Shown here: piece by piece, positions 10,703 through 49,300 of the stretch
How positions within the stretch are numbered: position 1 is the first letter of the stretch
Layout of the letters: every line of letters begins with the position of its first letter
Assembly: GCA_049512075.1 (NCBI GenBank)
Contig: JBEKXL010000001.1
Coordinates: 224,001-288,000, forward strand
Origin: Candidatus Bathyarchaeia archaeon
GTDB taxonomy: Archaea > Thermoproteota > Bathyarchaeia > Bathyarchaeales > Bathycorpusculaceae
DNA: 64,000 nt
Direction of reading: 5' to 3'
Position numbers and translations under genes: made by a program
The notes under the pieces: generated by a model
What the model saw: only the letters and a program-made list of their open reading frames with translations
What the model was told of the DNA's origin: nothing
Database searches by the model: none

Positions 10703-10705
10703 CCC

Positions 10706-11179: not shown

Positions 11180-11309
11180 TGGCGGGCCCGCAGGGATTTG
11201 AGCCCAAACGGGGTCAAGTCCCACGACCCAGTTGCCAAAAAATGGCAAACGAGCGCGTCAAAACCCGCGCTCTTCAAAGCCGAGAGTTCGAATCTCTCCC
11301 GGGCTACCA
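11180..11309. other. Composite of two outward-facing tRNA 3' ends (att-like island boundary); not a complete tRNA
   Basis: Minus strand of 11180-11205 reads GGGCTCAAATCCCTGCGGGCCCGCCA (Lys/Arg-like). Plus strand 11282-11309 reads GAGAGTTCGAATCTCTCCCGGGCTACCA (Gln-like T-arm, acceptor strand and CCA). No D or anticodon arm found. Confidence 0.7.
11194..11221. repeat. 28-bp 11-6-11 palindrome, copy 1
   Basis: GGATTTGAGCC-CAAACG-GGGTCAAGTCC. Confidence 0.85.
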
Positions 11310-11395
11310 TCAACCCAAGTCAGGTCGACGTTCAAACTCTCGGAATCAGTGCCCGCGCTCAATTCCTTCGTTACTTTTTTCTCTATCCCTTTATC

Positions 11396-11557
11396 TTAGC
11401 GGGTGATTTCCCCGAGTTAGATAGAGTAGAACAATGCCTCCTGCGGCTGATAAGGCGGCTGCATACGTAAAGGCAATCAGGGGTGACATAAGAGCCCAGA
11501 GTGCTCCGACTACTGCGCTAGAGGCAAAGTCGCCAATGCCGTTAACCGTCTGCAGGC
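11396..11557 (-). pseudogene. MFS transporter C-terminal remnant
   Basis: Own translation LQTVNGIGDFASSAVVGALW...AAALSAAGGIVLLYLT*, no start codon. Confidence 0.55.
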
Positions 11558-12673
11558 GGAGCTTTGACTTGTCTCACCGGTGCAGTTTCATACGCCGCAT
11601 CTTTAGTGAACCCCAATATATCCAATGCAATTAGCCTCGGCTCGTCAACAATTCCAACAGCCGACATCCCGACTCTTATTGCGAACGGCGCTACCGTTGT
11701 GTGCTCTTTCACATCTTGAAGAACCTTTCTCTGTGAACCCAAAATAGCGCTCGCACGTGGCAGCGCTATTTTTTTCTATTTCTTTTAACCAACATATTTC
11801 CTAATGAATTCGTTTGGCCCTTGGTCGCTAAGGTCTTTTCTATGTTTACGGAAACAATTTAATTCAAAATTCGATGTTGGTCTCACGACAATCATCGATT
11901 AGTGTTACCGCGTAAGGTTCCTATTCGATTTTGAGTGAAATTTTAGTTTTCACACAAGCTCGAAAGAGTATGGAGACGTGTAGTTCCGAGTTCTGCAACC
12001 ACTCTCCTTCTGAAAATAATTTGGAAGGGAAATTCGCTTTTCTAAAAAAAGCGGTTAAACCCAAAGACTGTGTAAGAAAATTGAAATCTGTTTTTTATAT
12101 AGAAATGAAGGCGCGCCGCGCCCGCTTCCTATTTGAGACGTGAAGACTCGTTCTTATTTGAATTAAGGTTTTGAACCCTTTTGGGTTTAGGGACGAATGA
12201 GTTTAGACCTCTACCGGACTTGCGGGCTTGCGTCCGAGATAGACTTTCAGCATCATTTGCCAATTATTCAGACGAGTTGGAACCCAAGATAGCCCGATGG
12301 GAATTGAACTTCGCAGTGGGGACTTTGACCCCATGATTAAGACTTTGTTTCCTCATTAGAGGGTTTGTCGCGGTCTTCTCCATGGCCAATATGGGTTTTA
12401 TGCGACCCGGGTGTTATTGCCGCGAAATACGATGGATCTTTGTGCCATGGAAACATGGGTGGTCTTTTTAGTTTCCCAGGTTCTTTTTCTGCTATGAGAG
12501 TATTTCTTCCCTGCTCAAGATCTGTTGAACGCTGAATGTAGTACGATGCAAATTAGCGCGCGCGCTTTTTCACCGTTTTTTTCCCTATTTTTGTTTCGAG
12601 TCGTTAATCTTAACAATACCTGTTTTGATCCGTCAGACGAGCAAATTATTTTACTATCTAGCAAGATAAAGGC

Positions 12674-13291
12674 TTGATTAAAAGAGGGAGCGATGAAATG
12701 GGAAAGGGATCATACCTTGACATGACTCCCGAAATGCGGGATTTTGCGAAAGAATTACTTTCTGATTCTGATTTTAAAGAAGCCGATAGATTATCCTGGG
12801 ATCTTGCTCAGGGCACTAAAAAAATGCGGCTGGACGCGAGAGTTCGTCTTATGGAAATCGTTAAACCGCCACCGAAAAGACCGCTGGAATATGCCCAGCA
12901 TGAAATTCAATATCTTCCCCAGTCGACGCGAAACAGTATTCGTTATCTTGGCGATTATATAGACCTTTTAGTTAAGGCTTATGCGTTTGAGGTTACGAAA
13001 AATCCTCGTTGCAAGGAGACTTCTTTAAACGGGAATCTTCAAAGATTGAGTTCCACTAAACATGGCGTTCCCTTGCAGTTAATTGATAATTTGAGAAGAT
13101 ACAACGCTTTGTTCTATAATCCAGCCAAACATGACTTTAGCACTCCCCCGCCTGATCGCGAGCACCATTTCACTTCGATAGAGACTATTTACTTGGTTTT
13201 TCTCTCGATGAAGCTTGCAGATGATATCAAGAAAATCTCGCCTTTGGCTAATCTGGTGAGTCTTGATAAAGAATCGATTCAGGAGTTTTAG
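12674..13291 (+). CDS. Hypothetical protein, possibly HEPN-like
   Basis: 205-aa helical ORF with YNPAKH; likely start at ATG 12698. Confidence 0.55.
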   Translation: MIKRGSDEMGKGSYLDMTPEMRDFAKELLSDSDFKEADRLSWDLAQGTKKMRLDARVRLMEIVKPPPKRPLEYAQHEIQYLPQSTRNSIRYLGDYIDLLVKAYAFEVTKNPRCKETSLNGNLQRLSSTKHGVPLQLIDNLRRYNALFYNPAKHDFSTPPPDREHHFTSIETIYLVFLSMKLADDIKKISPLANLVSLDKESIQEF

Positions 13292-13485
13292 GAACTGAAT
13301 TTGTATTGTTCCATTAGCAATCTATGACGCTTTTTCCGACATAGCCAAAACTCCACTCGACTGTTCATACTTTCAATTTGTGCTTGGTAGCAAATATGCC
13401 TGCCGCGGAATTGTACCTATCCGACGGGAATGGAACCCCGTGGAGTGAATCTGACCACTCTAACACGACAAGAGATGGCCCGAGG

Positions 13486-13513
13486 GGATTTGAACCCAAA
13501 TGGGGTCAAGTCC
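13486..13513. repeat. 28-bp palindrome, copy 2
   Basis: GGATTTGAACC-CAAATG-GGGTCAAGTCC, preceded by CAAGAGATGGCCCGAGG and followed by a (GC)5 tract at 13522. Confidence 0.85.
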
Positions 13514-13664
13514 ATTCGTTTGCGCGCGCGCTTCTTGTCAAACGGCCTTGCTCGCCTTGTTAGCTCGCGCAGATTCACAGCCTATACAGTTGACTAGCGG
13601 GTAGGCGTCTGTTTCAGTTTGGTTGGCGTGCTTTGTCTTAGCGCGCGCGTTTCGGCACCGCATT

Positions 13665-14552
13665 CTAATGAAAATAGTTTTTGTCTGATATTTCGCCTTT
13701 TGTAACTTTCTCCACGAGACAATCAAGCAATTCGCCGTATGTGTGTATAAGTGAATTAAATTTAGTTTCAAGTTCTCGAAGTCTAATCCTCTTTTCTTTC
13801 TTTTCCATGACAAAAACAAGGCTCGAAGACTTATAATCGTAATAGAATTTTTCATGTGCCACACAATTCCTTATTTGATTTGCCTTGATTTCCCATTCTT
13901 CTGTATCCAGTACTCGTAGCGAAGGATAGTCACAAAGAAACCTTATCAACTCTTCATCGTTTTCTGGTCCTTTTCCAAGCTTCGCTTTGTAAATCTTGTT
14001 TAGCATTCCCTTTGTCCATTCATACCATGCCACATAGCCGTGTGCGACAATGAAGGCTTTCAACTTACGATTTCTTAGATTTCCAGCTAGACTTTGAATC
14101 TCTACATTGAATTGGATATTTCTCGTTCTGAACTGCATTCTCTCCTTTCGAGTATCATCGTAAAGTCTTTTTAACGTCTTAGGAGTCATGTCGAAAAGCT
14201 TCGTATATTCTTCTGTCCTTTTCCCTCGTGCTTCCCAAAACCACTTCATATAATTCTTGAGATATTCGCCCTTCACGTTTTGGATTGTCCTTGCCCATTC
14301 CTCTACATCATCCATTACCAGCTTGAACAGAAGCCTACCATACCAAAAGTCGTAAATATCCAGATTCTTGTTGAATGCCTCAGCACGGATTTCTCTAACT
14401 GAAAATACCTTTGTCCAATTTCCTCTGCAATTTATTTCCAGATTCTTTGAAGTTAGTATTAATTCGCCCCCGTCACAAATACACTTTTTAGCGCGTGAAT
14501 ACGCTACGCCTTTGAAAACGCCTTTTTTCACAACTTTTCCATTACGTTGCAT
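13665..14552 (-). CDS. Putative PH-like + HEPN domain protein
   Basis: N-terminal GELILTSKNL...EEWARTI (PH-like); C-terminal IRNCVAH (RNxxxH). Confidence 0.6.
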   Translation of the reverse strand: MQRNGKVVKKGVFKGVAYSRAKKCICDGGELILTSKNLEINCRGNWTKVFSVREIRAEAFNKNLDIYDFWYGRLLFKLVMDDVEEWARTIQNVKGEYLKNYMKWFWEARGKRTEEYTKLFDMTPKTLKRLYDDTRKERMQFRTRNIQFNVEIQSLAGNLRNRKLKAFIVAHGYVAWYEWTKGMLNKIYKAKLGKGPENDEELIRFLCDYPSLRVLDTEEWEIKANQIRNCVAHEKFYYDYKSSSLVFVMEKKEKRIRLRELETKFNSLIHTYGELLDCLVEKVTKGEISDKNYFH

Positions 14553-14564
14553 GATAGGTGACTC

Positions 14565-15167
14565 TCATGGTTCGAAAGTTATCAATTTTCCACCGTTAAA
14601 GACATTTCCACAGCAGGGGCATACGAACAAGACTTGGCTCATATTGAAGAAAAAATGCAGAAATTGCCCAATCTGTTTTGAGGGTATCTTGATGCCTTCT
14701 CTGTGAATTTCCAGCATGCTAAGGAACCATTCAGACTGTTCTCCAAGGATTCTCCATGCTTCCTCAATTTTACCGTTCTTAATCAAAGATTCGTCAATTC
14801 CATTTATGGTTCTCACACTTTCGACTTTTTCGTTTAGTTCCGTCTTTGCCTTATCACAATAATCTGGAAGAAGAGCATTGACTTTCTCTTTATCATCTAT
14901 CCCTTCTTTTGGTTCGAATCTAATGTGCCAATAGCTTTTCTGGTCACCTTGAACTCGGCTCGGATGAAAGAGAAAACAATACCATTTCGTGCCCTTCTGA
15001 ATCAAACCCAAAACTATCGGACGCACCTTTAGACGCAAAGTATCATAGACACTATGCAAAAAATCTGAATAAGACATTTTTGGGTTCGTTGGTATTTCAA
15101 TATAGGTTTCCCAGATGCGGTTTAAGTGTGGCTTCTCCATTTTCCTCACAGCAGAACAATGCCACAA
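14565..15167 (-). CDS. Hypothetical protein, resembles a stand-alone Lant_dehydr_C domain
   Basis: WETYIEI...VRP...WYCFLFH...HIRF...HFFFNM; likely start 15140. Confidence 0.5.
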   Translation of the reverse strand: MWHCSAVRKMEKPHLNRIWETYIEIPTNPKMSYSDFLHSVYDTLRLKVRPIVLGLIQKGTKWYCFLFHPSRVQGDQKSYWHIRFEPKEGIDDKEKVNALLPDYCDKAKTELNEKVESVRTINGIDESLIKNGKIEEAWRILGEQSEWFLSMLEIHREGIKIPSKQIGQFLHFFFNMSQVLFVCPCCGNVFNGGKLITFEP

Positions 15168-15509
15168 ATTACGTTATAACTATAGCTGTCTAGACTTGAT
15201 TAACATCCACCTCACGGAATCACCACACGCATAGCACGCGCGCTGAGTGATGGGAATTGCGAAGAAGCAGTTGTGATTTGCCCGATACACGATCAGATCA
15301 TTCCAGTGACTGCGACCTACCGTACATGGTAGTTCTATTGCTCGCCCAGAGCAAGAGATAAGAGTGAAGAGGCTTGAAAACGAACGTGGAAATAGGAGTT
15401 CTTTCATATCTTAACACTTATGGCAACACCCGAGAAAGTGACCTGATAGACTGCAGATACAGACTTGGCGAATCTTCGGAGAAAGAAAACCCCGCCAAGG
15501 AGGTAAACC

Positions 15510-15923
15510 ATGAAAAAAGGAAGGATCCAAAAAAAACGAAACCGGTGGTATGAGCAGACAGAACGCGCGCAGTCGCAGAGCACAAAGTTGTGGACTACAG
15601 GTGGTGAGACTCGCGCGCCTCAGTCAGTCTATGAAAAAGTTCAGAAGGAACTGACTGGTAAGAGTCACGATGAACTTCTTGAGAGGTTTGAGAAGCGCTG
15701 GAATTTTCTTTGGGAGAACAGGGCAAAAGTGAAGAAGACATATCCTAAATTCTCACAGGCACAAAACATGACCGATGAGGAGCTTATTGAAGCTATTGCC
15801 CAGATAGAATCCGACCTTGCAATCAACACTGACAGAGAGATCGCTATAGCTTTTCTACAGGACCAGAAGCGTTTTGAAGGCAGACAAAAAGGAAGAGTGG
15901 ATAAATCTTTCCGTGAACACTAG
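15510..15923 (+). CDS. Hypothetical protein
   Basis: GGAGGT upstream of the ATG; contains two short GC tracts, so may be mosaic. Confidence 0.45.
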   Translation: MKKGRIQKKRNRWYEQTERAQSQSTKLWTTGGETRAPQSVYEKVQKELTGKSHDELLERFEKRWNFLWENRAKVKKTYPKFSQAQNMTDEELIEAIAQIESDLAINTDREIAIAFLQDQKRFEGRQKGRVDKSFREH

Positions 15924-16160
15924 CAGGCAATCTCAAGCGCGCGCAACGTCGTTCCGGTTCAGCCTAGCCAAAATAGAACATGAACGCTCGGGCTTCTCCA
16001 TACACATCATTACATACATACCCAAGCACAGGTAAATAAGAAAATGTCAACCTCCAGAATTTAGCGAGACCCTAGCGCGCGCACTTACAAAGAGGAATTT
16101 AGGAACACGCTAGCGCGCTAGTTCGACAAACACAACATTAAGTTCGGGAAGCAACCAGAA

Positions 16161-16868
16161 CTAACCCCATTCTGCAAAAGACCTAGGCTCAAGATTCCAT
16201 ACGCAACTCTCTTTGACCCTCGCGTATCTCCAACATTGAGGCAGAAGTCTATGTTCTCTTTCAAATTGGTCAATGACCGTAATTCTAGCCTCAATTTTGA
16301 GTTCCTCGTTCAATGCCCACTTGTATTGATCCTGACTTATACTGAAACCTCCAAAAACTGTTGTGTGAGGATTCAAATTCCACTCTGTTTTTCCTGTATA
16401 GTATCCGCTTTCATCTTGGAGGTCCTTCACGTCATTGCCAATAATGACCTTGGTCTCGATTCTAATTCTTACGGGTAAAGAGTTACCCGCATGCTCTATC
16501 AACGTGGCAACAAACGGCAACGAGTCTCCAGGACGAGGATTCGCAGGTGTTGATGCGGTTGTTAAACGCAACAAAATAGGTGACACAAGGTTTCGTGTGT
16601 ATTCCTCGTACACTTGGTCTCTGCGCCTTCTTAATTCCTCAAACCTGTATTTGTTTCCCCTCTTACTCTTCGGATTGTAACGGTCAATTTTGGCGTGACA
16701 TTCATAACAAGCGGGCATTCCATTTTCTATGTTGTTGCCTCCATCGGGGTCAATGTGAGCTATCTCAATGTCTACTCCGCAAGCTTTCTTGCATAGACAA
16801 CAGTGACGGTCACTCCAAAGAAGCATTTTTATTTTGTCTTCGGGTCTAAATTCGGGTGGCCGAGGCAT
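16161..16868 (-). CDS. HNH endonuclease-domain protein
   Basis: CCLC...EIAHI...NGMPACYECH. Confidence 0.8.
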   Translation of the reverse strand: MPRPPEFRPEDKIKMLLWSDRHCCLCKKACGVDIEIAHIDPDGGNNIENGMPACYECHAKIDRYNPKSKRGNKYRFEELRRRRDQVYEEYTRNLVSPILLRLTTASTPANPRPGDSLPFVATLIEHAGNSLPVRIRIETKVIIGNDVKDLQDESGYYTGKTEWNLNPHTTVFGGFSISQDQYKWALNEELKIEARITVIDQFEREHRLLPQCWRYARVKESCVWNLEPRSFAEWG

Positions 16869-17015
16869 GTCTTTCCTCCGTGGTCTTAGCCTGTCGTATT
16901 ACTATTATCCGATTTGACTCAATGCGCATCGGCACTTAAAACGTTGTTTCTTTGATTTTTGAATAGAAATCAAGCAAGCTCTAACTACGGAAAACCAGCG
17001 CGCGCTGGCATCTGA

Positions 17016-17088
17016 AAAAAACCTCAGTAGCGATTCAATAATAAGTTTGACGAATTTTCACGGCAAGAGATGGCCCGAGGGGATTAGA
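17016..17088 (+). repeat. 73-bp repeat (copy of 49076-49148) ending in the left half of the 28-bp palindrome (copy 3, truncated)
   Basis: 6 mismatches versus 49076-49148 by eye; cut by CGCGCGCGC at 17090. Confidence 0.85.
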
Positions 17089-17098
17089 CCGCGCGCGC

Positions 17099-17461
17099 TA
17101 CACCTTAAGAAAGGACACAAGACCCGAATTAGTGCAAAGAGTCGGCATAAGAGTACGTGAGACAAACAATCTAGTTGAAAGGATGCACGGCACAGTCAAA
17201 GACAGAACAAGAGTAATGAGAGGACTCAAAAGCTTCGATTCTACAAAGTCACTTCTGGAAGGCTTCACAATTCACTACAACTATGTGAGACCACACCAAA
17301 GCCTAGGCGGAAAAACGCCAGCACAAGCAGCAAGAACACAAGCACCTTGCACGTGGAAAGGATTGATAGACGAAGCAACAAAACATGAAGCGCAACTTCT
17401 GGCCAAAACTACAAGTCCTGAGAAAACGGAGAAAAGAGAAATGGAGGCGGTAGTGAAATGA
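17099..17461 (+). pseudogene. IS6/IS240-like DDE transposase C-terminal fragment
   Basis: NNLVERMHGTVKDRTRVMRGLKS...HYNYVRPHQSLGGKTPA; begins immediately after the GC tract 17090-17098. Confidence 0.8.
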
Positions 17462-17626
17462 GAAAAGTCTTAGTTGCTCTTCCCGAAAATGTGGCCGATC
17501 TCTTGAACAGGGAGCGCGCGCGGAACGATAGGTGAGACTTGTTCAGACACCTTGCGAACAATAATAATGAGTTGGCTGTCAGAGAAAGGATATTTGACGA
17601 AAGGTGGGAAGCATGGCAAAGAATAA
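17458..17626 (+). pseudogene. Ribbon-helix-helix (CopG-like) gene frameshifted at a GC tract
   Basis: MRKVLVALPENVADLLNRE + cgcgcgc + (shifted frame) GTIGETCSDTLRTIIMSWLSEKGY. Confidence 0.65.
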
Positions 17627-17765
17627 ACCAAAACGAGAACTTACAGAAGAGGTTGACCTATTAGACGCTATGCTTTCAAGGCTTGTAGAATTGCTTGAAG
17701 AGAAAGGCATATTGACTCAAGAAGAATGGGAGAAGCATATCAAAGAAAGAGTCGTCGTGAAATAG
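17613..17765 (+). CDS. Small hypothetical protein (50 aa)
   Basis: MAKNKPKRELTEEVDLLDAMLSRLVELLEEKGILTQEEWE...; overlaps the upstream RHH stop. Confidence 0.55.
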   Translation: MAKNKPKRELTEEVDLLDAMLSRLVELLEEKGILTQEEWEKHIKERVVVK

Positions 17766-17774
17766 GTATTCTAT

Positions 17775-18233
17775 TCATTCATCATCCAATTTTCTATAGA
17801 AGCACTTAGGTAGTACAACATAATTCTGATTATTTTCAAGCATCTTAAATAGAGACGAATTCTTGAAGTAGGAGAAACTTTGTGGTGGTTTGAAATCAGG
17901 AAACACCGCAAAGGGATCTATAGGACTCTCAAACCTGAAAGCCTCATCGATTTCAAAAGCGTGAATGATTTTCGTACCGTTACAATAGTTTAGATAAGCA
18001 CGCTCGTCGATACCGCTTGCCTCTTTGCATTTCTGCCAAATTCTTTTGGGCGTTCCAGAATGAATCCTCTTTACTCTGAACTCACCAACAATGCCTCTAG
18101 TCGGGCTACTTTCATACACGAACACCATATCGGTCAAAAATTTGGGTTTCTGCTTGCGAAATTCATATTTTTTTTCGCCGGAGAAAATCTTCTTGGAGTA
18201 TACAGGTTTAACCGACAATAATACGCTCATCAC
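17775..18233 (-). CDS. ASCH (PUA-like) domain protein
   Basis: LLSVKPVYSKKIFSGEKKYEFRK, YESSP, PPQSF. Confidence 0.88.
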   Translation of the reverse strand: MMSVLLSVKPVYSKKIFSGEKKYEFRKQKPKFLTDMVFVYESSPTRGIVGEFRVKRIHSGTPKRIWQKCKEASGIDERAYLNYCNGTKIIHAFEIDEAFRFESPIDPFAVFPDFKPPQSFSYFKNSSLFKMLENNQNYVVLPKCFYRKLDDE

Positions 18234-19719
18234 TATTCGTCTCCTTGATTATTTTCTCGAATGATTCATCAGAGATTTCCTCAAATCCTCTTGGTGCTGA
18301 ACTTACGTCTTTGATAATGCCAAGCTTGATAAGTTTTTCTAAATTTATTCTTTTTGGGAAAGAATAAGTGTAGAGGAAATTCACAACGAAAGGACGGTTT
18401 TTTGGATAATAATCCCATTGTTCTTTAAGCTCTTTATCTGAGAAAACGCTTCTTTTCCTACACAAGTCAATGAATTGCCGATAATCGAAGATTGAGGTGT
18501 AAATTCCGTCGACGATTCCGAGTGTGGTAATGACGGACTTGTAGTAACCGTCAGTTCTGTAGAAAACAATGATGTCGCCGATTCTCAGATCTCGCCTAAT
18601 TGACCTTGAGACATAGACTTTCGATATAGCATTTCTGAAAGGTTCGTTTTCAACAAAATCCATAGGTGACTCAGTTCTGAGGATTGAATCAGGAAAGAGG
18701 TTGGTATGATACTGAGGATATATTGGAACGATGAACTTGCGTGCTTTTCTTGACATGAATGGGTACGTTGTTTTAGGAGAACTCAGTGATGCGTTTGGAG
18801 AAAAGTCATGAGTGAAGACCACCTCTTTTCCAGAGGCTGATTGCTTTATTCCGTGATATATGAAACCGTATTCTATCAACAGATTGATCAAGCGAGAATG
18901 TTCAACGCGTTTGGTAAACAAGGTAACATAGATTTCATCGACTGAGAGATGCAATGCATTGTCAAAGACGATTTTCAGGAATCTTTCTCCGATTTTCAAT
19001 CCATTGAGTTGAACCTTGAACGTTCCGATTTTGAGTCGTTTCTTCTTAGAGAACGGCGGTTCTATATCTGAGTAAGGTTCAGATTCATCTTCTGTTTTAA
19101 GATAAAGAAAAGCGATGATTTTATCATCTGATGAACACACGTAAGCGATCTCCTCTGCTTTACGGTTGAACCATTTGTCAAAATCAACGTAGTCTTCTCT
19201 GAAAGAGTCAAAAAACTCGTCTTTCAGGTTGATATTGCCGAAAAACTCTTTCTTTACAGAAGGCACTTTGTAATCCACGAGCTCAGGATTCTCTGCAGTA
19301 ACCTTTTCCAGAAACGAGTCAATGGAAAATACTTTTGTCTCAATTCCCAAGTCATGCGCTTTTCTATGGATTTTCGCGTCCTCGGTTATCAACAAATCTA
19401 CGCGGTCAGAAGCGACTTCATTTATTAGAGTTGTATCATTTCTGTCACTTTCTGAAGAATCGTATTTCTTTGCAACAGTTCGAACTTCATCTTTCAGTTG
19501 TGCTTGGGTTTTCAGTTGATTGTAACTCTGTATTTTCGTGAGAAATGCCTTTCTCGTCTCGGCATTCTGATGAAGAGATATTTCGTCAATTGTAACCTGA
19601 TGAACATATTTCTTGTATCCTAGTTTGTCAATCCACCAAAATAGTTTGCCGATTTCCTCTCTCGTTGGATCTTTTGCCTCGCGGTGCACTATGATATTAG
19701 TGTCCAGCAACACTCGCAA
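18208..19719 (-). CDS. PIN + GNAT + PUA/ASCH-like fusion protein
   Basis: VLLDTNI and LITED (PIN); LKIGTFKV...IGERFL (GNAT); IVPIYPQYHTNLFP...GDIIVFY (PUA-like). Confidence 0.82.
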   Translation of the reverse strand: MRVLLDTNIIVHREAKDPTREEIGKLFWWIDKLGYKKYVHQVTIDEISLHQNAETRKAFLTKIQSYNQLKTQAQLKDEVRTVAKKYDSSESDRNDTTLINEVASDRVDLLITEDAKIHRKAHDLGIETKVFSIDSFLEKVTAENPELVDYKVPSVKKEFFGNINLKDEFFDSFREDYVDFDKWFNRKAEEIAYVCSSDDKIIAFLYLKTEDESEPYSDIEPPFSKKKRLKIGTFKVQLNGLKIGERFLKIVFDNALHLSVDEIYVTLFTKRVEHSRLINLLIEYGFIYHGIKQSASGKEVVFTHDFSPNASLSSPKTTYPFMSRKARKFIVPIYPQYHTNLFPDSILRTESPMDFVENEPFRNAISKVYVSRSIRRDLRIGDIIVFYRTDGYYKSVITTLGIVDGIYTSIFDYRQFIDLCRKRSVFSDKELKEQWDYYPKNRPFVVNFLYTYSFPKRINLEKLIKLGIIKDVSSAPRGFEEISDESFEKIIKETNSDERIIVG

Positions 19720-19873
19720 CTTTCTTCCCTTTTCAGATTGTCTTGATCTCTTGAAAAGATTTGCCCCTAAAGAAGTGGAAAGCCTTCACCAACCACAAAT
19801 AACTTAACAGCGTATCGATACAAGGCAAAATTAAAAAGGGACAAAATCCACCACAAATAACGCAGCAGTATCG

Positions 19874-20845: not shown

Positions 20846-21018
20846 GGCTTGTCAAATCAACTGACACCGTATGATTCCCCATTCATAAAACACTTTGCTT
20901 TCGCGGTCATTCAGAAAACCGTGCGCGCTCGCTCAATACGTTATGTTCTCTCCCGAGTCGTTCCCAATGCCTATAGGAAAACCGATGGATCTACATGGTG
21001 TTGGGTGTTAGTCTCTGG

Positions 21019-21627: not shown

Positions 21628-21670
21628 TAGGGAGAGCAAATAGAAGCTACAACAAATCCAGGCGCTGGTC

Positions 21671-21995: not shown

Positions 21996-22031
21996 CGCCG
22001 CCACGCCATTATTGTTAGTCGATGTCGCGCA

Positions 22032-40016: not shown

Positions 40017-40133
40017 TTCTACGACAGTTCACACGTCGACCCAGTGACCGAAGCCTCGGCAAACGGACTAGAGTATTGAGTCGTAAGAGTTATTAGGTCA
40101 ATTTAACATCGAACTAGCAAGGTCGAACAAGCG

Positions 40134-40634: not shown

Positions 40635-40736
40635 GAAAACAGGACTGATGCGGCACAAAATCATCTGCCGACCTACGCGCGAAGCGCGCGCGAGAAAATG
40701 GCACACGAAGAGGTTCAATTCACTAAGAAGAGGTAA

Positions 40737-41267
40737 TTGAAAATGGATAACTGTTTCAAATGTGGAAAAAAACTGAGCTGGACTGAAAAACACGCTAAGG
40801 GTATGGTAAATCCTGTTTGGCGTGTTTGGCAATATCACCCAGAATATAAAGGAAAAAGATTCTGTCGAGAGTGTCAACAAGAGTTTTTCAAAGAGGAAAA
40901 AGCAATCTTAGCAAGGAAACCATTATGTCTAAACTGTGGTTACGGTAAAGTCATTGACCACATTGACGCTTTTGGGGATTCTGTTTATTCCTCTCAATCT
41001 CTCTCATGTCGAAAATTCAGCATGGACGTGAAGGGCAGAGGTGAAAGCGAAGCCCCAAATTGCAAGAGCTTCATACCCAAAGAGGAATATAAACAGAAAG
41101 CCCTTAAAGGAGAACTACCATCAGAGAAAGAAGCCCATTATGTAACTTGTCAATACTGCAAAACTCACTACGATGCAAATCAATACTTCAAATGCCCTCA
41201 ATGCGGTTCACCGACAACCTTAGACAGAACTGCCAAACGCACTTACCCAAGAACTGGAACCGATTAG
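40737..41267 (+). CDS. Multi-zinc-finger hypothetical protein
   Basis: Several CxxC pairs; bracketed by GC tracts at 40676-40692 and 41273. Confidence 0.65.
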   Translation: MKMDNCFKCGKKLSWTEKHAKGMVNPVWRVWQYHPEYKGKRFCRECQQEFFKEEKAILARKPLCLNCGYGKVIDHIDAFGDSVYSSQSLSCRKFSMDVKGRGESEAPNCKSFIPKEEYKQKALKGELPSEKEAHYVTCQYCKTHYDANQYFKCPQCGSPTTLDRTAKRTYPRTGTD

Positions 41268-41468
41268 TCAATGCGCGCGCGGTCTATGTAGCTATCGAGT
41301 TAAATCCATCCGTAGATGAAAAGCGCGCGCGAATTCTCGAACATTAGTTTTAGACTTCCTTGCATCTGAATTATGAAACCAAGATTCCATATAATTTGAA
41401 GCAGATTGTTGACGAGTAATTCATAAGACTGAAAAATAATGGGCGCGGATTGCCATATTGTGGACTAA

Positions 41469-42962
41469 ATGACGGCGCTCACGTTCTACGGTGGCGTTAA
41501 TGAGATCGGCGGAAACAAGGTTCTCCTAGAAGACAACGGCACTAGAGTTTTCCTGGATTTTGGAATGAGCTTCGGCACAGTTAACAACTATTTTTCGGAA
41601 TTTTTGCAGCCTAGGAAATGTAATGGTTTGGGAGATTTCATAGAGTTCGGGCTTATTCCGGATTTGAAAGGAATCTACCGACTGGACTTCTTAAAACAAA
41701 TGGGGCGACCGCAGGAAGATCTGGAATTTCAAGGATTACTTTTGTCCCATGCTCACGCAGACCATGCGTCATACGTGAACCATCTTCGCGAAGACTTGCC
41801 CATTTATTGCTCGGATGAAACATATCACATACTCAAAGCAATCAACGACACAGGCAGCGGCAGCTTTACTGACATCACGGATTTGACGAAGTGCTTTGAA
41901 ACGTACGTTAACAAGAAGGGAGAAATAAGCAGAAAGACTTCACTGACCCATCCAGATATTGTTGTTCAAAGGGAATTTCACACCTTTAAGTTCAAGGAGA
42001 AATTCAAGATAGATCATCTAGTAATAGAGCCCTTCAATGTAGACCATTCCCTATCAGGAGCTACAGGCTACATAATTCATACTTCTTCAGGCACGATCGT
42101 TTATACTGGAGATTTTCGCTTTCATGGACGCAGGGAGAAAGAAACCGTAGAGTTCATGGAAGCATGCAGGGTTGCGAAGCCGGACTTATTGATCATAGAG
42201 GGCACACGGGTTGAGGAGGAGAGTTCCAAAAAGGAAGCAGAGGTAGAAGACGAGATTTACAGTATTTCGTCAAAGGCAAAGGGTCTTTCTGTTTGTAATT
42301 GGTCTATAAGGGATACTGATAGACTGCTCTCCTTTCTGAATGCTGCTAAGAAAATGGACAGAAAGCTTGTGATATCTCTCAAACAAGCATATTTGCTGGA
42401 AGAGCTGTCAAAATGTGCCGACACTATCACTCCAAGTATAGATGATGAAAACATAGAACTCTATGCTAGCAGAAAGAGTTGGGGGCTAATAGGAAGCGAC
42501 TGTTGTGAAAAGATGCGTAACCAGGATTACGATACTTGGGAACGTTCTTATCTTGACCGGGCAATCTGCTACAAAGACCTGAGAGATAATCAAGCCAACT
42601 ATCTGATGTTCTGCAGCAACTTTGACCTTAAGGAACTCGTAGACATCAAACCAACTGCAGGTTCGGTTTACATTAAGTCAGTTTGTGAGCCATTTGATGC
42701 CGAAATGGAGATTGACTGGGAAAGGATAGAAAACTGGATAAAGCATTTTGGCATGAATATCAGCTCAACTCACGTTTCTGGACATGCCTCAGGTCTTCAA
42801 CTGAAAGATTTCGTGGGACAAGTTGGCCCAAGAACAATAATCCCTATTCACACTGAAAGTGCGAAAACCTATGAAAAATGGTCGAGTGGAGTTCATATTT
42901 TGAAGGGGGCTGGTGAAAGTTATAGCTTGGAGCGCGCGCAACGAAACGTGCTTACCAATTAG
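41469..42962 (+). CDS. Metallo-beta-lactamase/beta-CASP nuclease (RNase J-like)
   Basis: GGVNEIGGN, SHAHADH, VDHS, YTGD, HVSGH, PIHTE. Confidence 0.88.
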   Translation: MTALTFYGGVNEIGGNKVLLEDNGTRVFLDFGMSFGTVNNYFSEFLQPRKCNGLGDFIEFGLIPDLKGIYRLDFLKQMGRPQEDLEFQGLLLSHAHADHASYVNHLREDLPIYCSDETYHILKAINDTGSGSFTDITDLTKCFETYVNKKGEISRKTSLTHPDIVVQREFHTFKFKEKFKIDHLVIEPFNVDHSLSGATGYIIHTSSGTIVYTGDFRFHGRREKETVEFMEACRVAKPDLLIIEGTRVEEESSKKEAEVEDEIYSISSKAKGLSVCNWSIRDTDRLLSFLNAAKKMDRKLVISLKQAYLLEELSKCADTITPSIDDENIELYASRKSWGLIGSDCCEKMRNQDYDTWERSYLDRAICYKDLRDNQANYLMFCSNFDLKELVDIKPTAGSVYIKSVCEPFDAEMEIDWERIENWIKHFGMNISSTHVSGHASGLQLKDFVGQVGPRTIIPIHTESAKTYEKWSSGVHILKGAGESYSLERAQRNVLTN

Positions 42963-43044
42963 ATTCATGGCGATTAGCGCAAAACATGGCCGAACAAGCA
43001 GGCTCAATTTATTATATTGAAAACCCAATTAGACTTGATAACTC

Positions 43045-45093
43045 TTGCCTGTTAAAATCGAATCCAAATGCAGGAAGTGCGGGCAATCATACTCTCCCAC
43101 CGAGCATCTTGAAAATAAATTTTGCCGAAAGTGCGGAACGTTTCTTGTCCTCGAGAGAACCGCAATTGAAGAACCAAAATCACGGGACAAGTCCGCTCAA
43201 ACAACTTTTAGGGTACCAAAACCCGAATTCTCGCCCAGTCCGGTGGATAACCACCAAATCAACAAAAAAACTCAAATTGAGCAATCAGAATTCGAAGAGA
43301 AAACCTTAGATGAAGAAAAAACTGAACACAAATATTCATGCAGCTTTTCAGATCCCCATAGCATAAGAAGGCGCGTCGAAACAAAGCAATTTGCGCCCCT
43401 CAAGAATTTCCAGCTCAATCTTGAAGCGCTTGAAATAAAGAGCATGGGCAAAATTGACAAGCTAATCTCGTTAGATGCAATAAGAACCAAGTTAACCCCT
43501 TATAATTTTCAGATGCAGCTCGCCCTCCAAGTAATCAATGAAATGAACGGAAACGCCATTCTTGCCGACGAAGTAGGTCTCGGCAAAACAATAGAAGCAG
43601 GCCTCATAATGAAAGAGTTCCTCCTAAGAGAGGAAATTAGTTCGGTTCTAATTATTACACCCAAGAGCCTCCTGTCACAGTGGAAAATGGAAATGACCGA
43701 AAAATTCGGAGAAGCCTTTTCCATAGCAAATAATCCGAGAGAATTTGTAGATTTAGAAACTGACGACAGAATCATATGTTCCCATAACCTGCTCGCCAGA
43801 AAATACGAACAGCTTTCAAATAGAATTTGGGATCTTGTAATAGTTGATGAAGCCCACACTTTCAGGAACACAAAAAGCAAAGGCAGAATTTACCTGGCAA
43901 ATCTTCGAAAGAACCATTTCTTGTTACTAACTGCGACGCCTTTGTGCAATAAACTCACGGATCTATACAGTGTTGTGGATCTAATTCAGCCTGGTCTTCT
44001 GGAGAGTGAGCGTTCATTCATTTCCCGTTTTGCAGAAGACGCAAAATGTCGTGTTGTAAAGTCAGACATGGTTGATGATCTGAGAAGTGCACTTCAAGGC
44101 TTAATGTGCAGAACAAGGAGAGACCAAACTGGCATACCGTTTACCCAAAGGTACGTAGAATCGCGAACTCTTGAAGCAAATGAAAAAGAATACGAATTCA
44201 TTGAACAAGCAACCCAATACCTAAGAGACATAAGTAATAACCGCTTCAAGACAATCGAAGAACTACAAGTAGAGAACCCAATAAGAAGAACCAGTGAATC
44301 ACAGAGTAGAGCGATTTTGGTATTTCAAGCCATTGCCATGCAGCAATCTTTCTCAAGTTCACCTTCTGCATCCATTGACTCGCTGAAGAAAAGGCAGGAA
44401 AAATTTCCCTCAGAACAAGAGGCCACATCTAAATTAATTGAAATGGCACAGCAAATCAAATCCTCAAAGATGGAATTACTTAAAAACGTCTTGGGCGAAG
44501 TTCCTAATGAGCAGGCACTAATTTTTTGCCTTAGAAAAATCACGACTTATAAACTCAAAGAAATGCTGAATCAAGAATTCGGAAAAGCAGATGTCTACTT
44601 GGGCGATATGACACAATCTGAAAGAGACAACGTGATCAGTAGTTTTAAGAATGGAGAAACCAAATACCTTGTTGCAACCGACGCTGCAGCAGAAGGCCTG
44701 AACCTTCAAAACTGCAGTATTATGTTCAACTACGATCTACATTGGAATCCCATGAAAATTGAACAGCGAATCGGTCGAATCCACAGGTTCAAACAAGAGC
44801 GCGACGTAACGATCTTTAACCTAAGCATAAAGGACACCATCGATGACTACGTCCTTCACATTCTTTACCAAAAAATTGACCTATTTACCATGACAATTGG
44901 CAAAATGGAAACCGTCCTAGCGGAAATGAAAGAAGGCTCACAAGATATACAGAAAACAATTATTGAGATTTTGCTGAGAAGCAAGAATCGCCTCGACATC
45001 AAAAAAGAGCTTGAAAAACTAGCCAATGACATAAACATTTCCAAGCGAAATCAAGAATTATCTGAGAAATTCACTAAAGGGGTTCTCGGTTGA
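43045..45093 (+). CDS. SNF2-family helicase (YqhH-like) with N-terminal Zn ribbon
   Basis: LADEVGLGKT, DEAH, TATP, EGLNLQ, EQRIGRIHR. Confidence 0.92.
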   Translation: MPVKIESKCRKCGQSYSPTEHLENKFCRKCGTFLVLERTAIEEPKSRDKSAQTTFRVPKPEFSPSPVDNHQINKKTQIEQSEFEEKTLDEEKTEHKYSCSFSDPHSIRRRVETKQFAPLKNFQLNLEALEIKSMGKIDKLISLDAIRTKLTPYNFQMQLALQVINEMNGNAILADEVGLGKTIEAGLIMKEFLLREEISSVLIITPKSLLSQWKMEMTEKFGEAFSIANNPREFVDLETDDRIICSHNLLARKYEQLSNRIWDLVIVDEAHTFRNTKSKGRIYLANLRKNHFLLLTATPLCNKLTDLYSVVDLIQPGLLESERSFISRFAEDAKCRVVKSDMVDDLRSALQGLMCRTRRDQTGIPFTQRYVESRTLEANEKEYEFIEQATQYLRDISNNRFKTIEELQVENPIRRTSESQSRAILVFQAIAMQQSFSSSPSASIDSLKKRQEKFPSEQEATSKLIEMAQQIKSSKMELLKNVLGEVPNEQALIFCLRKITTYKLKEMLNQEFGKADVYLGDMTQSERDNVISSFKNGETKYLVATDAAAEGLNLQNCSIMFNYDLHWNPMKIEQRIGRIHRFKQERDVTIFNLSIKDTIDDYVLHILYQKIDLFTMTIGKMETVLAEMKEGSQDIQKTIIEILLRSKNRLDIKKELEKLANDINISKRNQELSEKFTKGVLG

Positions 45094-46823
45094 GCAGCAA
45101 ATACTCTAACACTCAAATTCACAAGTTCATAAGAGCTTTTGTTGAGTCAAAAGACGGAGAGTTAATCGATAAGTCTGATGAGATTTTCACAATTAAATAT
45201 CCCAAAACATTGAGCGCAAAAGAGTACACCTACCAACCTGTAGTTGCCAGAGAGAAAAAAATACCATTAATAACGACTGGCAGTCCAGCCTTTCAAGAAA
45301 TACTGAATGAATGCCTAGAAAATGGATTACTATGCTCAGTTCGACTGAAGTCAAAGGCAGATGATGAATCTCTCCTAAAGGATTACTTCAAAGACTCGCC
45401 TTTCGCGTGCGAAGATTGCGACAGAGTTTCCATAGAAAAGGAGGAAGTCTCGTTTTGTGTAAAATCTCCTCGCTGTTACCATCAAATAAATAACGCAAAG
45501 ATAGTGTCGATGAAAATAAATAAGAAAGAAAGAGTTAGGTTCTTCCAATTCTATTTTTCAGCCGTTTTTCAAAATAAGCTTAGACCAAGAAATGAAGAAA
45601 CAATAATGATCCTAATCGATGAAGATGGCAATATAGCAGGCACAGGAGATTTTCATGAACATGATCTCCTAAAAAACAAAGCAGTGGAGATACTAGATGC
45701 CCAAAGCAGTCTTGAAACAAAGGTCTTCGACATATTGAAAATTTTGGTAGATGAAAAGCTGGATTCCATCCTGAAAGAAAAGTTAGCTTTCTTTGATTTG
45801 CCTCTCAACAAAGACATAAAGACTAAGCTGAGAAGCTATGACAAAAGACTCAGAGAAGAACGTCGTGAAAAGCTCATTTCCAAGAACCATGAGTTTGACG
45901 AAAAGAGATGGCAAGCCAACCATGATGCACTTTTAAAAAGGGAAGAAGAATCGTACAGAACCCATATTGTAGTAAAGTTTCTCAACCTACTCATAATAAA
46001 TACGGATAAAGTCAGTTTTGAAATCAACCTAGACAATAATTCTACCATAAATTCTTCCTTTGTTCTCGGAGTGAACGCGCCTTCACAAGTCACTTGCCCA
46101 GGCTGCGGCAAAACTTTCTTTGAAGGGTACGCCACGCAAGATTCTTACTACCTCTGCAGAGACTGCATAAGGCAGTCCATTGAAACAGGCAGAATCTACT
46201 CAACAAAGCAAGACTTGGCTTTGGATTCAACGTTAAATGAATACATTGAACCAGATTTAGGCTTTGTCTGTTCTGTATGTGGGAAGAGAAGCAGCCGCCT
46301 GCTAGAATTCAAATGCAATCACGATAATTCAAGCGTGTGTATTCATGATTATGGGCTTTGCAATAATTGCGGCCGTATTTTCTCCGAGGCGAACCTTACA
46401 CTAAGCAAAGAATCTAATCGAAAACTGTGCCCTAAGCACATTATTGTCTGTGAGGGTTGTGGGTCTCCCATTGGAGTGGACGAGTATAGATTGTGTGTTG
46501 CAACTGGGAGAAGATTGTGCTCCTGCACTAGCTTCGAAAGATGTTCTTTTTGCCGGCAAGAATACTCCAGCACGTCGTTAAAAGAAAACAAATGTCCTGC
46601 ATGCAACAGCCTAAGCGAGACGGTAGATCCATTACTTGCTAACGTAGTTCTGAATCATGATAGTTCTCAGCGCAAGACGACGAAATGGCTGATAGGCAGG
46701 AATAAAATGAACGTTGTTGTAGTGGCAAAAGGAGTCTTTTCAAATACACTGTACGTGATTGAAAATGATAAGGTAGTTTTCCAAAGAAATATTTCGTTTT
46801 TGGACAAGCTTAGGGGTCATTAG
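45090..46823 (+). CDS. YqhG-like partner with Cys-rich multi-Zn-finger C-terminus
   Basis: 4-nt overlap with the SNF2 gene; LITTGSPAFQ; many CxxC pairs. Confidence 0.6.
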   Translation: MSSKYSNTQIHKFIRAFVESKDGELIDKSDEIFTIKYPKTLSAKEYTYQPVVAREKKIPLITTGSPAFQEILNECLENGLLCSVRLKSKADDESLLKDYFKDSPFACEDCDRVSIEKEEVSFCVKSPRCYHQINNAKIVSMKINKKERVRFFQFYFSAVFQNKLRPRNEETIMILIDEDGNIAGTGDFHEHDLLKNKAVEILDAQSSLETKVFDILKILVDEKLDSILKEKLAFFDLPLNKDIKTKLRSYDKRLREERREKLISKNHEFDEKRWQANHDALLKREEESYRTHIVVKFLNLLIINTDKVSFEINLDNNSTINSSFVLGVNAPSQVTCPGCGKTFFEGYATQDSYYLCRDCIRQSIETGRIYSTKQDLALDSTLNEYIEPDLGFVCSVCGKRSSRLLEFKCNHDNSSVCIHDYGLCNNCGRIFSEANLTLSKESNRKLCPKHIIVCEGCGSPIGVDEYRLCVATGRRLCSCTSFERCSFCRQEYSSTSLKENKCPACNSLSETVDPLLANVVLNHDSSQRKTTKWLIGRNKMNVVVVAKGVFSNTLYVIENDKVVFQRNISFLDKLRGH

Positions 46824-46824
46824 A

Positions 46825-47760
46825 ATGGATTATGTAAAATTCAACGGTATTCTCGAAGAGGCTCTTGAGAAATATCCAAACATTGACCTCGTGAAGTTCC
46901 TTCAGCAGAAATTGCAGATTCCAGAGTATAAAGCCAAGGAACTAACCACCAGAATAGAAAGAGATTTCAATCCTGAAATTACGAGTAGAATAAAGCAAGG
47001 CAAAGAAAAACCAATTGATGCAAAAGAACAGACTAAGGTTCAATACTCACCAAAAGTCAACATATACTCTGTCGATAGCCTCTCAGGAAAAGAATTTGAG
47101 CACTTTTTGAAATGGCTGTTTGAGGAGTTGGGATACCAAGTGCAACCTGGAAAATACGTCGCCGATTCTGGTGTTGATTTAGTAGCATCGAGAGATAAAG
47201 AGAAAATAGCGATACAAGCCAAACGATACCAAAGAAGCATGAAAGTCTCGAATTCGGTCATATTAAAAACGCATGGTGGAATGGACGTCTATGGTTGCAA
47301 GAGGTCAATCGTCATAACTACATCCTACTTCACGCAGCAAGCTATGTCAGACGCTCGAAAGTTAAACATTGAACTCTGGGACAGGGACACGTTGGCGGCA
47401 AAAATTGATGAAATATGTAACAGAAGTGTAAATCTGGAGACGAAACCTCGCTTCCCCAAATACAAGGGTTCGCTTCTTAAAAGCCTGATAAGTTTAGAAG
47501 AAACAGGCGAGTTCATTGTAGAACGCAAAGAAAACGGAAAGTATGATCTGCATCTGCCTGGGGTGAAATTTCCACTAATCTCTTTTCAAACCAATCTCAA
47601 CCATGTTACTAAATGCGTTTATAGAATTAAAAACAACGAACCAGTTGGAGAATACGACGGGTTCGCTCTAATCAAAAGCGACCGCAAGGACAGATATGGC
47701 CCTGAGGGCGAACAAGCCTACGAACTAATTGTCAAATATCTCGAGAAATTTCTGGAATAG
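46825..47760 (+). CDS. Mrr-family restriction endonuclease
   Basis: LSGKEFEHFL...DSGVDL...IQAKRY...TTSYFT...ELWD. Confidence 0.88.
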   Translation: MDYVKFNGILEEALEKYPNIDLVKFLQQKLQIPEYKAKELTTRIERDFNPEITSRIKQGKEKPIDAKEQTKVQYSPKVNIYSVDSLSGKEFEHFLKWLFEELGYQVQPGKYVADSGVDLVASRDKEKIAIQAKRYQRSMKVSNSVILKTHGGMDVYGCKRSIVITTSYFTQQAMSDARKLNIELWDRDTLAAKIDEICNRSVNLETKPRFPKYKGSLLKSLISLEETGEFIVERKENGKYDLHLPGVKFPLISFQTNLNHVTKCVYRIKNNEPVGEYDGFALIKSDRKDRYGPEGEQAYELIVKYLEKFLE

Positions 47761-47909
47761 ATTCGAACAAGGAACTTCAAGTGAAACATAATTGAATAGC
47801 AGCCGATTGCAAGAAGAGAATCGTTTCAATAAGACGATAGTGGATTTAGTGTTTTCTTTTAGAAAGCTTTTGAACAAGCTGTCCGCACCATAAGAGAGGA
47901 AGCTGAAAT

Positions 47910-48860
47910 ATGGCGTCTGCTGAAATTCGCTGTCCGGACTGCGGTTCTACATCAGTTTCAAGAGTTGCGGGCGCTTATTGTTGTGACTTCTGCGGGCGGA
48001 AATTCCAGATTATCAAAAAGATCCAAAACGAGCTGGCATTAAACATTTCTGAAAGGCAACAAATCAGATACGGCAAAATCAATTTTGATATAGAGGGTGC
48101 GACTAAACTCGGGAATTTTAGTTTAGATAAGAATGTTGACGTAACCTATTGCATGAATGATGTCTTCAAGTTTCATGGTTTTAAACAAATCAAAAGAGGA
48201 AACACTATCGTCAGAGCTGATGCTTATGGATATGTTTTTGCCAATCCTACGAATGGGACTATCAATGACGTTTCTTTTGCAGACGGCTTCTACCCAACAG
48301 CTGATGATTTCAAAAACGTGATGCTAGCCGAGTGCATTAGAATTGTCAACGATAACGCATTCGAGAACAGACCCTCTATTAAGCGCGAAGATCAAGAGTT
48401 GGACATTCCGAGTTTTGTCTCAATTGAGAAACTCAAAAAAGGAGTTTTCGAATGGTTGCTTCAAAACATTGCTGTCAAAAAGAGATATTACGTTCAAAGT
48501 GGCGCAAGACAGGTTATTCTAACTTTTAAGAAGAAAGACATCTTAGAATTTGGCTATAGTGGTTGTTATGCTGTTCCTCTTGTCAAGCTTAGTTATAATT
48601 ACCCAAATTCATCGCGAATTCTCAAAAGGGAAATACTGGGGTATTCAGGGCAGATTATTCAAGACGATTTCAAATGCTCCAAGACCAGAATGTTTGGAGG
48701 CGCGTGCAAAAACTTTCCAAACGACTTATGTTCCGTGTGTGACAATCCTATATGCGCCGATCATCAACGGCAATGTGAAAAATGCGGCACCATCCTATGC
48801 AAGGACTGTACGGTTTCAAAAGGATTAATCGCTAGACACCATTTCTGTCCCAAGTGCTGA
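47910..48860 (+). CDS. Zn-finger hypothetical protein
   Basis: N-terminal CPDC/CDFC and C-terminal Cys cluster. Confidence 0.6.
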   Translation: MASAEIRCPDCGSTSVSRVAGAYCCDFCGRKFQIIKKIQNELALNISERQQIRYGKINFDIEGATKLGNFSLDKNVDVTYCMNDVFKFHGFKQIKRGNTIVRADAYGYVFANPTNGTINDVSFADGFYPTADDFKNVMLAECIRIVNDNAFENRPSIKREDQELDIPSFVSIEKLKKGVFEWLLQNIAVKKRYYVQSGARQVILTFKKKDILEFGYSGCYAVPLVKLSYNYPNSSRILKREILGYSGQIIQDDFKCSKTRMFGGACKNFPNDLCSVCDNPICADHQRQCEKCGTILCKDCTVSKGLIARHHFCPKC

Positions 48861-49075
48861 TTCAAAAAAGAGGACGCTCTGGAACATTTTCTGGAGCCAA
48901 GAAGCTCATACCCAAAAATCCCATGCGTTTACCCAAGTTTATTTATGCAATTTGGAATATAAAGAGGCGAAGGCTCGCGGAGCTAGTGTCTCGGCATGGA
49001 TAATTCCATGATAGACTGGTTTAGAAAACTCTATCTCGAACTCAAATGGGATAAAGGGGCCGGAGCGCGCACGCT

Positions 49076-49300
49076 AAAAAACCTCAGTATCGATTCACTA
49101 GTAAGTTTAACGAATTTTCGCGGCAAGAGATGGCCTGAGGGGATTAGAACCCAAACGAGACTGTGTGAAAACTCGTCGCTTTCAGAAAATTGCTTGTTTT
49201 ATGTGCAAAAGGCTGACCTTGGGACGTGTTCTATACATGTAGAGCGCAATTTCTTGAAACAAATTTGACTTTTCACACAGTCTCAAACGGGTTCAAGTCC
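49076..49300 (+). repeat. 73-bp repeat plus 28-bp palindrome copy 5, interrupted by a MITE
   Basis: Removing the MITE and one AAAC restores GGATTAGAACC-CAAACG-GGTTCAAGTCC. Confidence 0.85.
49157..49284. mobile_element. 128-bp MITE with IS1182/IS5-like ends
   Basis: Perfect 15-bp TIR GAGACTGTGTGAAAA / TTTTCACACAGTCTC; 4-bp duplication AAAC at 49153-49156 and 49285-49288. Confidence 0.88.

Follow-up and report, generated by a model that had tools for sequence, protein, structure and literature searches.

What is a short palindrome made of two inverted tRNA T arms doing in dispersed copies in an archaeal genome? The question is raised by a 64,000-nt stretch of the genome of a Candidatus Bathyarchaeia archaeon (here the window: positions 224001-288000 of contig C1 of the source genome, G000; window-equivalent positions continue the count past 64000). 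Each palindrome consists of two 11-nt inverted arms and a 6-nt spacer, which are the arm and spacer lengths of Xer/dif and pdif sites, and both arms resemble a T arm. A first-pass annotation had taken the copies for recombination-related sites, and the results below agree with it on that point. Bathyarchaeia are abundant and uncultured, and to our knowledge almost nothing is known about the integration of their mobile elements. The reading that we favour, with a probability of about two in three, is that the palindrome is the element-side attachment (att) arm, and its copies the scars, of integrations of Bathyarchaeia mobile elements into tRNA tails. It is probably not a free-standing recombination device. 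The copies in the window are best read as the border and the inner seams of a defence island at a tRNA-Arg gene.

The border of this island is made up of the following features:

11180..11205, minus strand: displaced 3' end of tRNA-Arg(GCG), from the T loop to CCA, read as the attR core and the distal direct repeat of the island
11194..11221, plus strand: copy 1 of the palindrome; its left arm shares sequence with the tRNA-Arg fragment, and the conserved 12-nt box R forms its right arm
11206..64000, continuing to window-equivalent 71943, no strand assigned: island body, with low GC content and defence cargo

The intact tRNA-Arg(GCG) gene is located on the minus strand at L001:7944-8092 (window-equivalent 71944-72092), 8 kb past the right end of the window. 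On the minus strand, copy 1 with its left flank reads GGGCTCAAATCCCTGCGGGCCCGCCA, and the intact gene terminates in GGGTTCAAATCCCTGCGGGCCCGCCA. The two form a direct repeat of 26 nt with one mismatch, in which the last 22 nt up to CCA are identical (22/22), so the T-arm likeness proposed in the first-pass annotation extends, for the left arm of copy 1 and its flank, to a real tRNA 3' end. The loop is CTCAAAT in copy 1 and TTCAAAT in the tRNA. The repeats lie 60.7 kb apart in the same orientation, the arrangement of intact tRNA and 3' repeat that marks a genomic island. The native downstream flank of tRNA-Arg stands to the left of the displaced 3' end: positions 11168-11205 are 92% and 97% identical to the empty sites of G002 and G004, respectively. 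In these two genomes of the same genus an ABC-transporter gene is followed by an intact tRNA-Arg(GCG) within about 30-70 nt; in the window the ABC-transporter gene ends at 10116. The core genes, including those for arginyl-tRNA synthetase, deoxyhypusine synthase, malate dehydrogenase and the ABC transporter, end at 10.8 kb. Up to 10 kb, in the core flank, the GC content is 49-53%; it drops at about 11 kb and is 39-47% from there on. The cargo comprises type I restriction-modification (R-M), an SNF2 helicase, Mrr, McrBC, a PLD nuclease, an XhoI R-M system, PIN and ASCH genes, and fragments of insertion sequences (IS). The direct repeat, the empty sites, the GC drop and the defence cargo therefore identify 11.2-71.9 kb as an island in the 3' end of tRNA-Arg, with copy 1 as its distal junction.

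A separate stretch of about 1 kb (10117-11167), with two small open reading frames (ORFs), lies after the ABC-transporter gene and ahead of the displaced tRNA tail. It is absent in G002 and G004 and occurs in G003 at 70% identity.

Conservation across genomes connects the left side of the palindrome to tRNA tails in general. The first-pass annotation had proposed scanning the genome and its relatives, and the scan was productive: the 28-nt pattern was found in 7/201 genomes of the order (reversed control, 0), and the 19-nt part formed by the spacer and the right arm (CCCAAAYGGGKTCAAGTCC) at 78 loci in the genome_contigs collection. By title, 72 of these loci are archaeal (nearly all from Bathyarchaeia) and six are bacterial. 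Across the 72 archaeal loci, conservation starts at an antisense CCA located 21-23 nt to the left of the pattern and ends with the final C of the right arm, beyond which it drops at once to background. In the tRNA sense the left side begins with GGG and a 7-nt loop, which are followed by one strand of the T stem, seven nt of acceptor strand and the discriminator. CCA stands at the exact tRNA position in 18/72 archaeal loci and within 1 nt of it in three more, compared with 0/6 of the bacterial chance matches. The recurring tail types are Gly, Val, Ala, Arg and Pro. Only 6/72 loci have a canonical left-arm loop (TTCAAAT or TTCGAAT); TTCTAAT, TATGAGT, TCCAAAT and TATTAGT are all commoner, and the tRNA genes of the source genome have canonical loops. 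Since its loop is mostly non-canonical, the left arm is, by this measure, a T-arm mimic that belongs to the element and not to the tRNA.

The opposite end of the island shows the same box. After the intact tRNA-Arg come CACTTTT, the right-arm box R (GGGTCAAGTCCC), TTATAT and then the 436-aa gene P0002, which starts 31 nt past the CCA of tRNA-Arg, so that a recombinase gene adjoins the tRNA as in other genomic islands. Judged from its sequence, P0002 is a tyrosine recombinase that has diverged very strongly. The residues R159, Y275xxR278 and R312-Y313 are invariant and match the pattern R...YXXR...Y quoted for pNOB8-type integrases in the excerpts of PMC8371274, and on this ground it fits that type. 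The best solved relative is Pyrococcus XerA (4a8e; E = 6e-4 with a profile of eight homologues); NCBIfam models gave no match to P0002.

Integrases of the P0002 type were found in 70/301 genomes of the order. At 20 of the 30 best loci ARAGORN predicts a co-oriented tRNA, of many different kinds, directly upstream; seven others have a tRNA 3' end there, two are cut by a contig end and one has none. The variety both of these tRNAs and of the tails at the palindromes upholds the earlier proposal of a recombinase system that uses many tRNAs. In the closer P0002 subfamily, TTT(T) comes after the tRNA end, and then GGGTTCAAGTCC or a variant, always 32 nt from the start of the T arm; a subgroup at 40% identity has a different sequence after the tRNA end. 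No relatives of P0002 were found in viral_contigs with either the single sequence or the eight-sequence profile. A tblastn search found no P0002 remnant beside the window copies, and a similarity between the right flank of copy 1 and the start of the integrase was not confirmed. The first-pass annotation had pointed to another integrase as the candidate enzyme:

63597..64000, minus strand: 3' part of a gene for a tyrosine recombinase of 457 aa, with no R-type box nearby

That suggestion is superseded by P0002, the integrase that does stand beside the box, at a tRNA outside the window. At four more tRNA genes of the source genome (C3:65193, C14:13599, C15:43126 and C32:9620), TTT with a GGGTT... 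box or a palindrome was observed within 5-40 nt downstream. These genes, which have no intact integrase of the P0002 type, are probably old attL ends.

A second element with both ends is present in G204 (locus L148), a genome of another genus. Its near end consists of tRNA-Gly(TCC), box R and a P0002-type integrase, and its far end, 14.3 kb on, reads CATCATGAACCC GTTT GGG TATTAGT CCCGGCGACCGCACCA. The far-end tail shares 16 identical nt with tRNA-Gly, and its loop differs from that of the tRNA at 4/7 positions. Since the tRNA identity is confined to sequence 3' of the loop and nothing in the tRNA corresponds to the spacer, the place of exchange with the tRNA is, on these alignments, the T-stem/acceptor core and not the palindrome spacer. 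At L136 an inverted T-arm pair, a core, box R and an integrase are contiguous, with no tRNA body, a layout that would be expected for an unrecombined attP or a tandem junction. Arrays of same-orientation copies anchored at a tRNA, with the anchor's tail in the outermost copy, were found in G000, L177, L176 and L148; that of L177 has three copies in 4.4 kb behind tRNA-Gly, and that of L176 two copies 2.7 kb apart behind tRNA-Ala.

We propose the following layout, given in the tRNA sense. The element would carry an inverted 12-nt box R' (GGACTTGAACCC), 4 nt (RTTT) and a T-arm-mimic box R*, composed of GGG, a 7-nt loop and CC, which would run straight into a core of 13-22 nt. The core would be identical to the T-stem 3' strand, the acceptor strand and the CCA of the target tRNA. 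After integration, the R'-RTTT-R*-core block would lie at the far end (attR), beside the old chromosomal flank, and the near end (attL) would consist of the intact tRNA, 4-7 nt, a third box R (GGGTTCAAGTCC), a TATA-like box and the integrase gene. Copy 1 would be the attR of the 60.7-kb island anchored at tRNA-Arg(GCG), and the other copies would be arms or scars of elements inside the island, one of them broken by an IS and one by a miniature inverted-repeat transposable element (MITE). The boxes are putative docking sites for a tyrosine integrase; the real T arm of any tRNA could supply the equivalent of R*, and the acceptor-stem core could set the tRNA target and hold the strand exchange. 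This layout is built on five observations: the direct repeat, an empty site in relatives, the pattern of conservation, the presence of boxes at either end, and a tRNA identity that starts 3' of the loop.

The inner copies of the island, with their neighbouring features, are:

11282..11309, plus strand: tRNA-Gln 3' fragment, from the T arm to CCA, 60 nt right of copy 1
12167..12194, no strand assigned: degenerate sixth palindrome, GGTTTTGAACCC TTTT GGGTTTAGGGAC
13486..13513, plus strand: copy 2, an exact match to the consensus
17016..17090, plus strand: half copy with its left flank; the half copy itself is 17081-17090, the first 10 nt remaining
21019..21046, plus strand: copy 3; the left flank does not correspond to a tRNA tail, and a degenerate tRNA-Gln-like T arm lies at 21093-21109
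49141..49300, plus strand: copy 4, with the spacer split by a 126-bp MITE-like insert at 49158-49283

The consensus is matched exactly at 11194-11221, 13486-13513 and 21019-21046, all on the plus strand, and no exact copy arose in 100 dinucleotide-preserving shuffles. Three exact copies, the split copy at 49141 and the half copy at 17081 had been reported in the first-pass annotation, and all five were recovered in the same orientation. The source genome has three further diverged copies and a second insert-split copy, on contig C2, beyond the window. No tRNA gene and no known RNA family was detected in the window by ARAGORN and Rfam (gathering threshold). In the neighbourhood of the degenerate copy, a joint between 12151 and 13480 on opposite strands is present in contigs of four runs.

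The half copy breaks off at a GCGCGCGC run, next to which lies a transposase fragment (17132-17461). Its 73-nt left flank is shared with copy 4 (49076-49148) at 92% identity; this is the sole internal repeat of the region, and no match to it was found outside the source genome among 120 family genomes searched. In the 1.5 kb around copy 3, conservation in the family is limited to 21018-21112, that is, to the palindrome and the tRNA-Gln-like fragment: 15/121 genomes (G000 included) gave matches, all within this interval except one of 25 nt. The tRNA-Gln fragment at 11282..11309 is identical to tRNA 3' ends at C4:138403 and C11:14461 and was carried in by the element, as there is no tRNA-Gln gene at this place. 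Such 3' fragments lie 30-60 nt right of the palindrome at copies 1 and 3 and at 7/72 external loci. Matches within four mismatches were found at nine sites genome-wide (on contigs including C1, C6, C29 and C32), two of which are the tRNA genes themselves; several share sequence past the CCA, so the fragments are element-borne and do not represent local junctions.

GCGCGC runs were observed close to the right arm, on its right side (17091-17098 and 13525-13534 in the window; L027-L104 among external loci), and one of them truncates the half copy at 17081. GCGCGC occurs at most 40 nt right of the right arm in 14/66 archaeal loci, compared with 2/66 in a control window and 3/66 on the left side. 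A transposon- or casposon-like explanation of the palindrome, with terminal inverted repeats and a target duplication, was considered and dropped, because the repeat is separated from the boxes by unmatched linkers (6 and 14 nt).

Several results weigh against the tRNA-tail integration reading. Copies 2 and 4 and the half copy carry a tail that matches a tRNA 3' end on contig C5 and not the anchor tRNA, the tail of copy 3 matches no tRNA, and a class of external loci is likewise without a tRNA tail. Inner copies in L177 and L148 also have tails unlike that of their anchor. Repeated integration into one tRNA gives identical tails, so these tails do not fit simple serial integration. Moreover, the same right flank occurs with different left arms and cores at different loci. 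Such mixtures could have arisen by a swap of the integrase/core module at the conserved palindrome or by palindrome-by-palindrome recombination.

Other difficulties concern the enzyme. P0002 scores 19.5 bits with the Pfam model Phage_integrase, below the curated cut-off of 27.1. Downstream of P0002-type integrases, 19/20 stretches (4-20 kb) contain neither a palindrome nor a matching direct repeat, and a direct repeat of the 17-nt tail was found at none of 20 integrase loci, a search in which the script was mis-anchored in four and found no T arm in three. Five palindrome-rich genomes lack a P0002 relative at E <= 1e-20, and the three that were searched again have only distant ones. The L176 and L177 arrays have no integrase within 20 kb. 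The strict form of the predicted contiguous attP pattern was found in 0/401 genomes. Given the missing palindromes downstream, the P0002-poor genomes and the integrase-less arrays, we only infer that the cognate enzyme is a divergent pNOB8-type integrase beside the tRNA.

The best surviving alternative is that the palindrome is a dif/pdif- or attC-like site, where exchange in the 6-bp spacer stacks integrase-less modules behind a tRNA. Its geometry is that of archaeal dif, given as 11-6-11 in the excerpts of PMC8371274. The uniformly oriented arrays, whose copies are separated by short stretches devoid of integrase genes (2.3-3.9 kb in the window, 1.5-2.8 kb in L176 and L177), would suit it, and it predicts the heterogeneous inner tails, which simple serial integration does not; the pairing of one right flank with a different left arm and core is also in its favour. 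The same holds for the MITE-like insert. This insert has 126 bp and 14-nt terminal inverted repeats, with ends AGACTGTGTGAAAA.... In copy 4 the left arm and CAAACG occupy 49141-49157, the insert 49158-49283, and a second CAAACG and the right arm 49284-49300. Both copies of the insert in the source genome (49158-49283 and G000:C2:161169-161295) are located in a palindrome spacer, which is duplicated. Family-wide, 4/11 insert loci examined lie in palindrome spacers; the insert is also represented at L111 and L116, and in a further case, at L136, a related insert splits the inverted T-arm pair. The insert thus shows a target preference for the palindrome spacer.

The position of the crossover, however, speaks against a spacer-based exchange. 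In both G000 and G204 the distal loop is unlike that of the tRNA, the identity lies 3' of it, and the tRNA contains nothing like the spacer. pdif modules are bounded by oppositely oriented sites, whereas the orientation here is uniform. The analogy with dif and pdif drawn in the first-pass annotation thus holds for the 11-nt inverted arms and the 6-nt spacer and fails on the exchange with the tRNA, which falls outside the spacer, and on the orientation; in addition, none of the four recombinases reaches the cut-off of the XerA model. The only module traced elsewhere does not help either. The two-gene block 13671-15150 (295 and 200 aa) has 88.7% DNA identity with a locus in G053, a different genus, which suggests recent horizontal transfer. 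One border of the block is 157 nt away from copy 2, the other falls 1.9 kb before the next copy, and there is no palindrome at the G053 locus. Around copy 3 it is the palindrome unit alone that recurs in other genomes. The earlier idea of the sites as module boundaries is therefore kept for copy 1, which stands exactly on a synteny break, and not for the traced module, whose borders miss the palindromes. We consider a dif/pdif-like site unlikely, on account of the crossover position and the orientation; the inner copies could still fit it. An integron attC array was rejected: the arrays are headed by a tRNA gene, and with integron-integrase models P0001 and P0003, two further integrases near tRNA-Arg, score 50.9 bits against a cut-off of 265, and P0002 gives no match.

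A somewhat more doubtful extension is that the palindrome serves, in addition to tRNA-tail integration, as a portable site. Any two copies would be joined through their arms or spacer; either the integrase or short-homology recombination would do the joining, and tRNA-anchored, integrase-less defence-module cassettes of 1.5-4 kb would build up. If true, this would be a Bathyarchaeia cassette system resembling integrons or pdif arrays and constructed from T-arm mimics, with even a MITE slotted in. No excision joint was found for 9000-25000 in contigs of four public runs, and assembled contigs cannot show rare circles; one source-like run covers the stretch in overlapping contigs, and in the remaining contigs nothing but the palindrome and the tRNA-Gln fragment is shared.

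It is very improbable that SSV-type 'suicidal' integrases, in which the att site lies within the integrase frame, left the copies behind as int(N)/att remnants. Integrases similar to those of SSV and pTN3 are indeed common in the source genome (at least 15 tblastn matches, several beside tRNAs), and the P0001 ORF runs antisense through the whole tRNA-Arg gene. The motif has no conserved reading frame, however: the open frame has 11-119 codons in 12 loci and at most 28 in six, and a coding interpretation of the motif was rejected on this basis. In the absence of such a frame the peptide GPRGFEP, formerly taken as a sign of an integrase N-terminus, is no indicator of an integrase. Conservation ends at the right arm, and tblastn found no P0001- or P0003-like coding sequence adjoining any window copy. 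The first-pass annotation had offered att/int(N) remnants as its own alternative; its att part comes close to the reading adopted here, and its int(N) part is not retained. A stand-alone dispersed repeat, of the repetitive extragenic palindrome or MITE kind, or a structured small RNA unrelated to integration would agree with a short, dispersed palindrome able to form a 12-bp hairpin and is hardly credible, given that changes in the left arm are not compensated in the right arm, that Rfam gave no match at five loci even at E <= 5, and that the left side is tied to tRNA tails, with one copy at a proven island border.

Integration into tRNA tails, the reading that we favour, also has the closest known parallels. 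According to the excerpts of PMC8371274, archaeal integrases favour tRNA 3' ends, and related integrases switch between different tRNAs. Archaeal pNOB8-type (non-partitioning) elements and bacterial genomic islands share with the case described here the insertion in a tRNA 3' end with the gene restored at one end, a displaced 3' fragment as a direct repeat, an integrase gene beside the tRNA and the use of many tRNAs by related integrases. In contrast to these systems, the arm beside the core is here formed by two T-arm-like boxes in inverted orientation, with a third box on the other side of the core. We found no description of inverted T-arm-like boxes, and the excerpts of PMC8371274 mention neither T arms nor Bathyarchaeota; among the literature matches listed for GGGTTCAAGTCC, none concerns archaeal mobile elements. 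The arm-type (P/P') sites of lambda Int are similar in that short repeated boxes flank the core, attP and attB differ, and arm scars are left at island seams. Unlike the lambda arms, the boxes described here copy the T arm of the target itself and abut the core at 4 nt and 4-7 nt.

The signature of a tRNA tail, 4 nt and GGGTTCAAGTCC provides an inexpensive means of locating island borders and old seams in Bathyarchaeia genomes. It also suggests how one integrase family could change its tRNA targets, with the T-arm-like boxes kept and the short acceptor-stem core swapped. A large share of the defence genes of the source genome came in at a single tRNA. If arrays do form by palindrome-palindrome recombination, this would be a new way of collecting gene cassettes.

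The tRNA-Arg(GCG) gene is also the site of a second, separate system, in which the palindrome is not involved. As in pTN3-like and SSV-type elements, the integrase genes P0001 and P0003, across the same tRNA-Arg, hold an antisense tRNA 5' half in frame. In the source genome and in G003 this tRNA gene has a 66-nt insertion in the D loop, which is lacking in G002 and G004. The insertion is in frame (22 codons) in the P0001 ORF. An intron-less copy of the first 36 nt of tRNA-Arg is located 2.3 kb away (L001:10346-10381), inside P0003.

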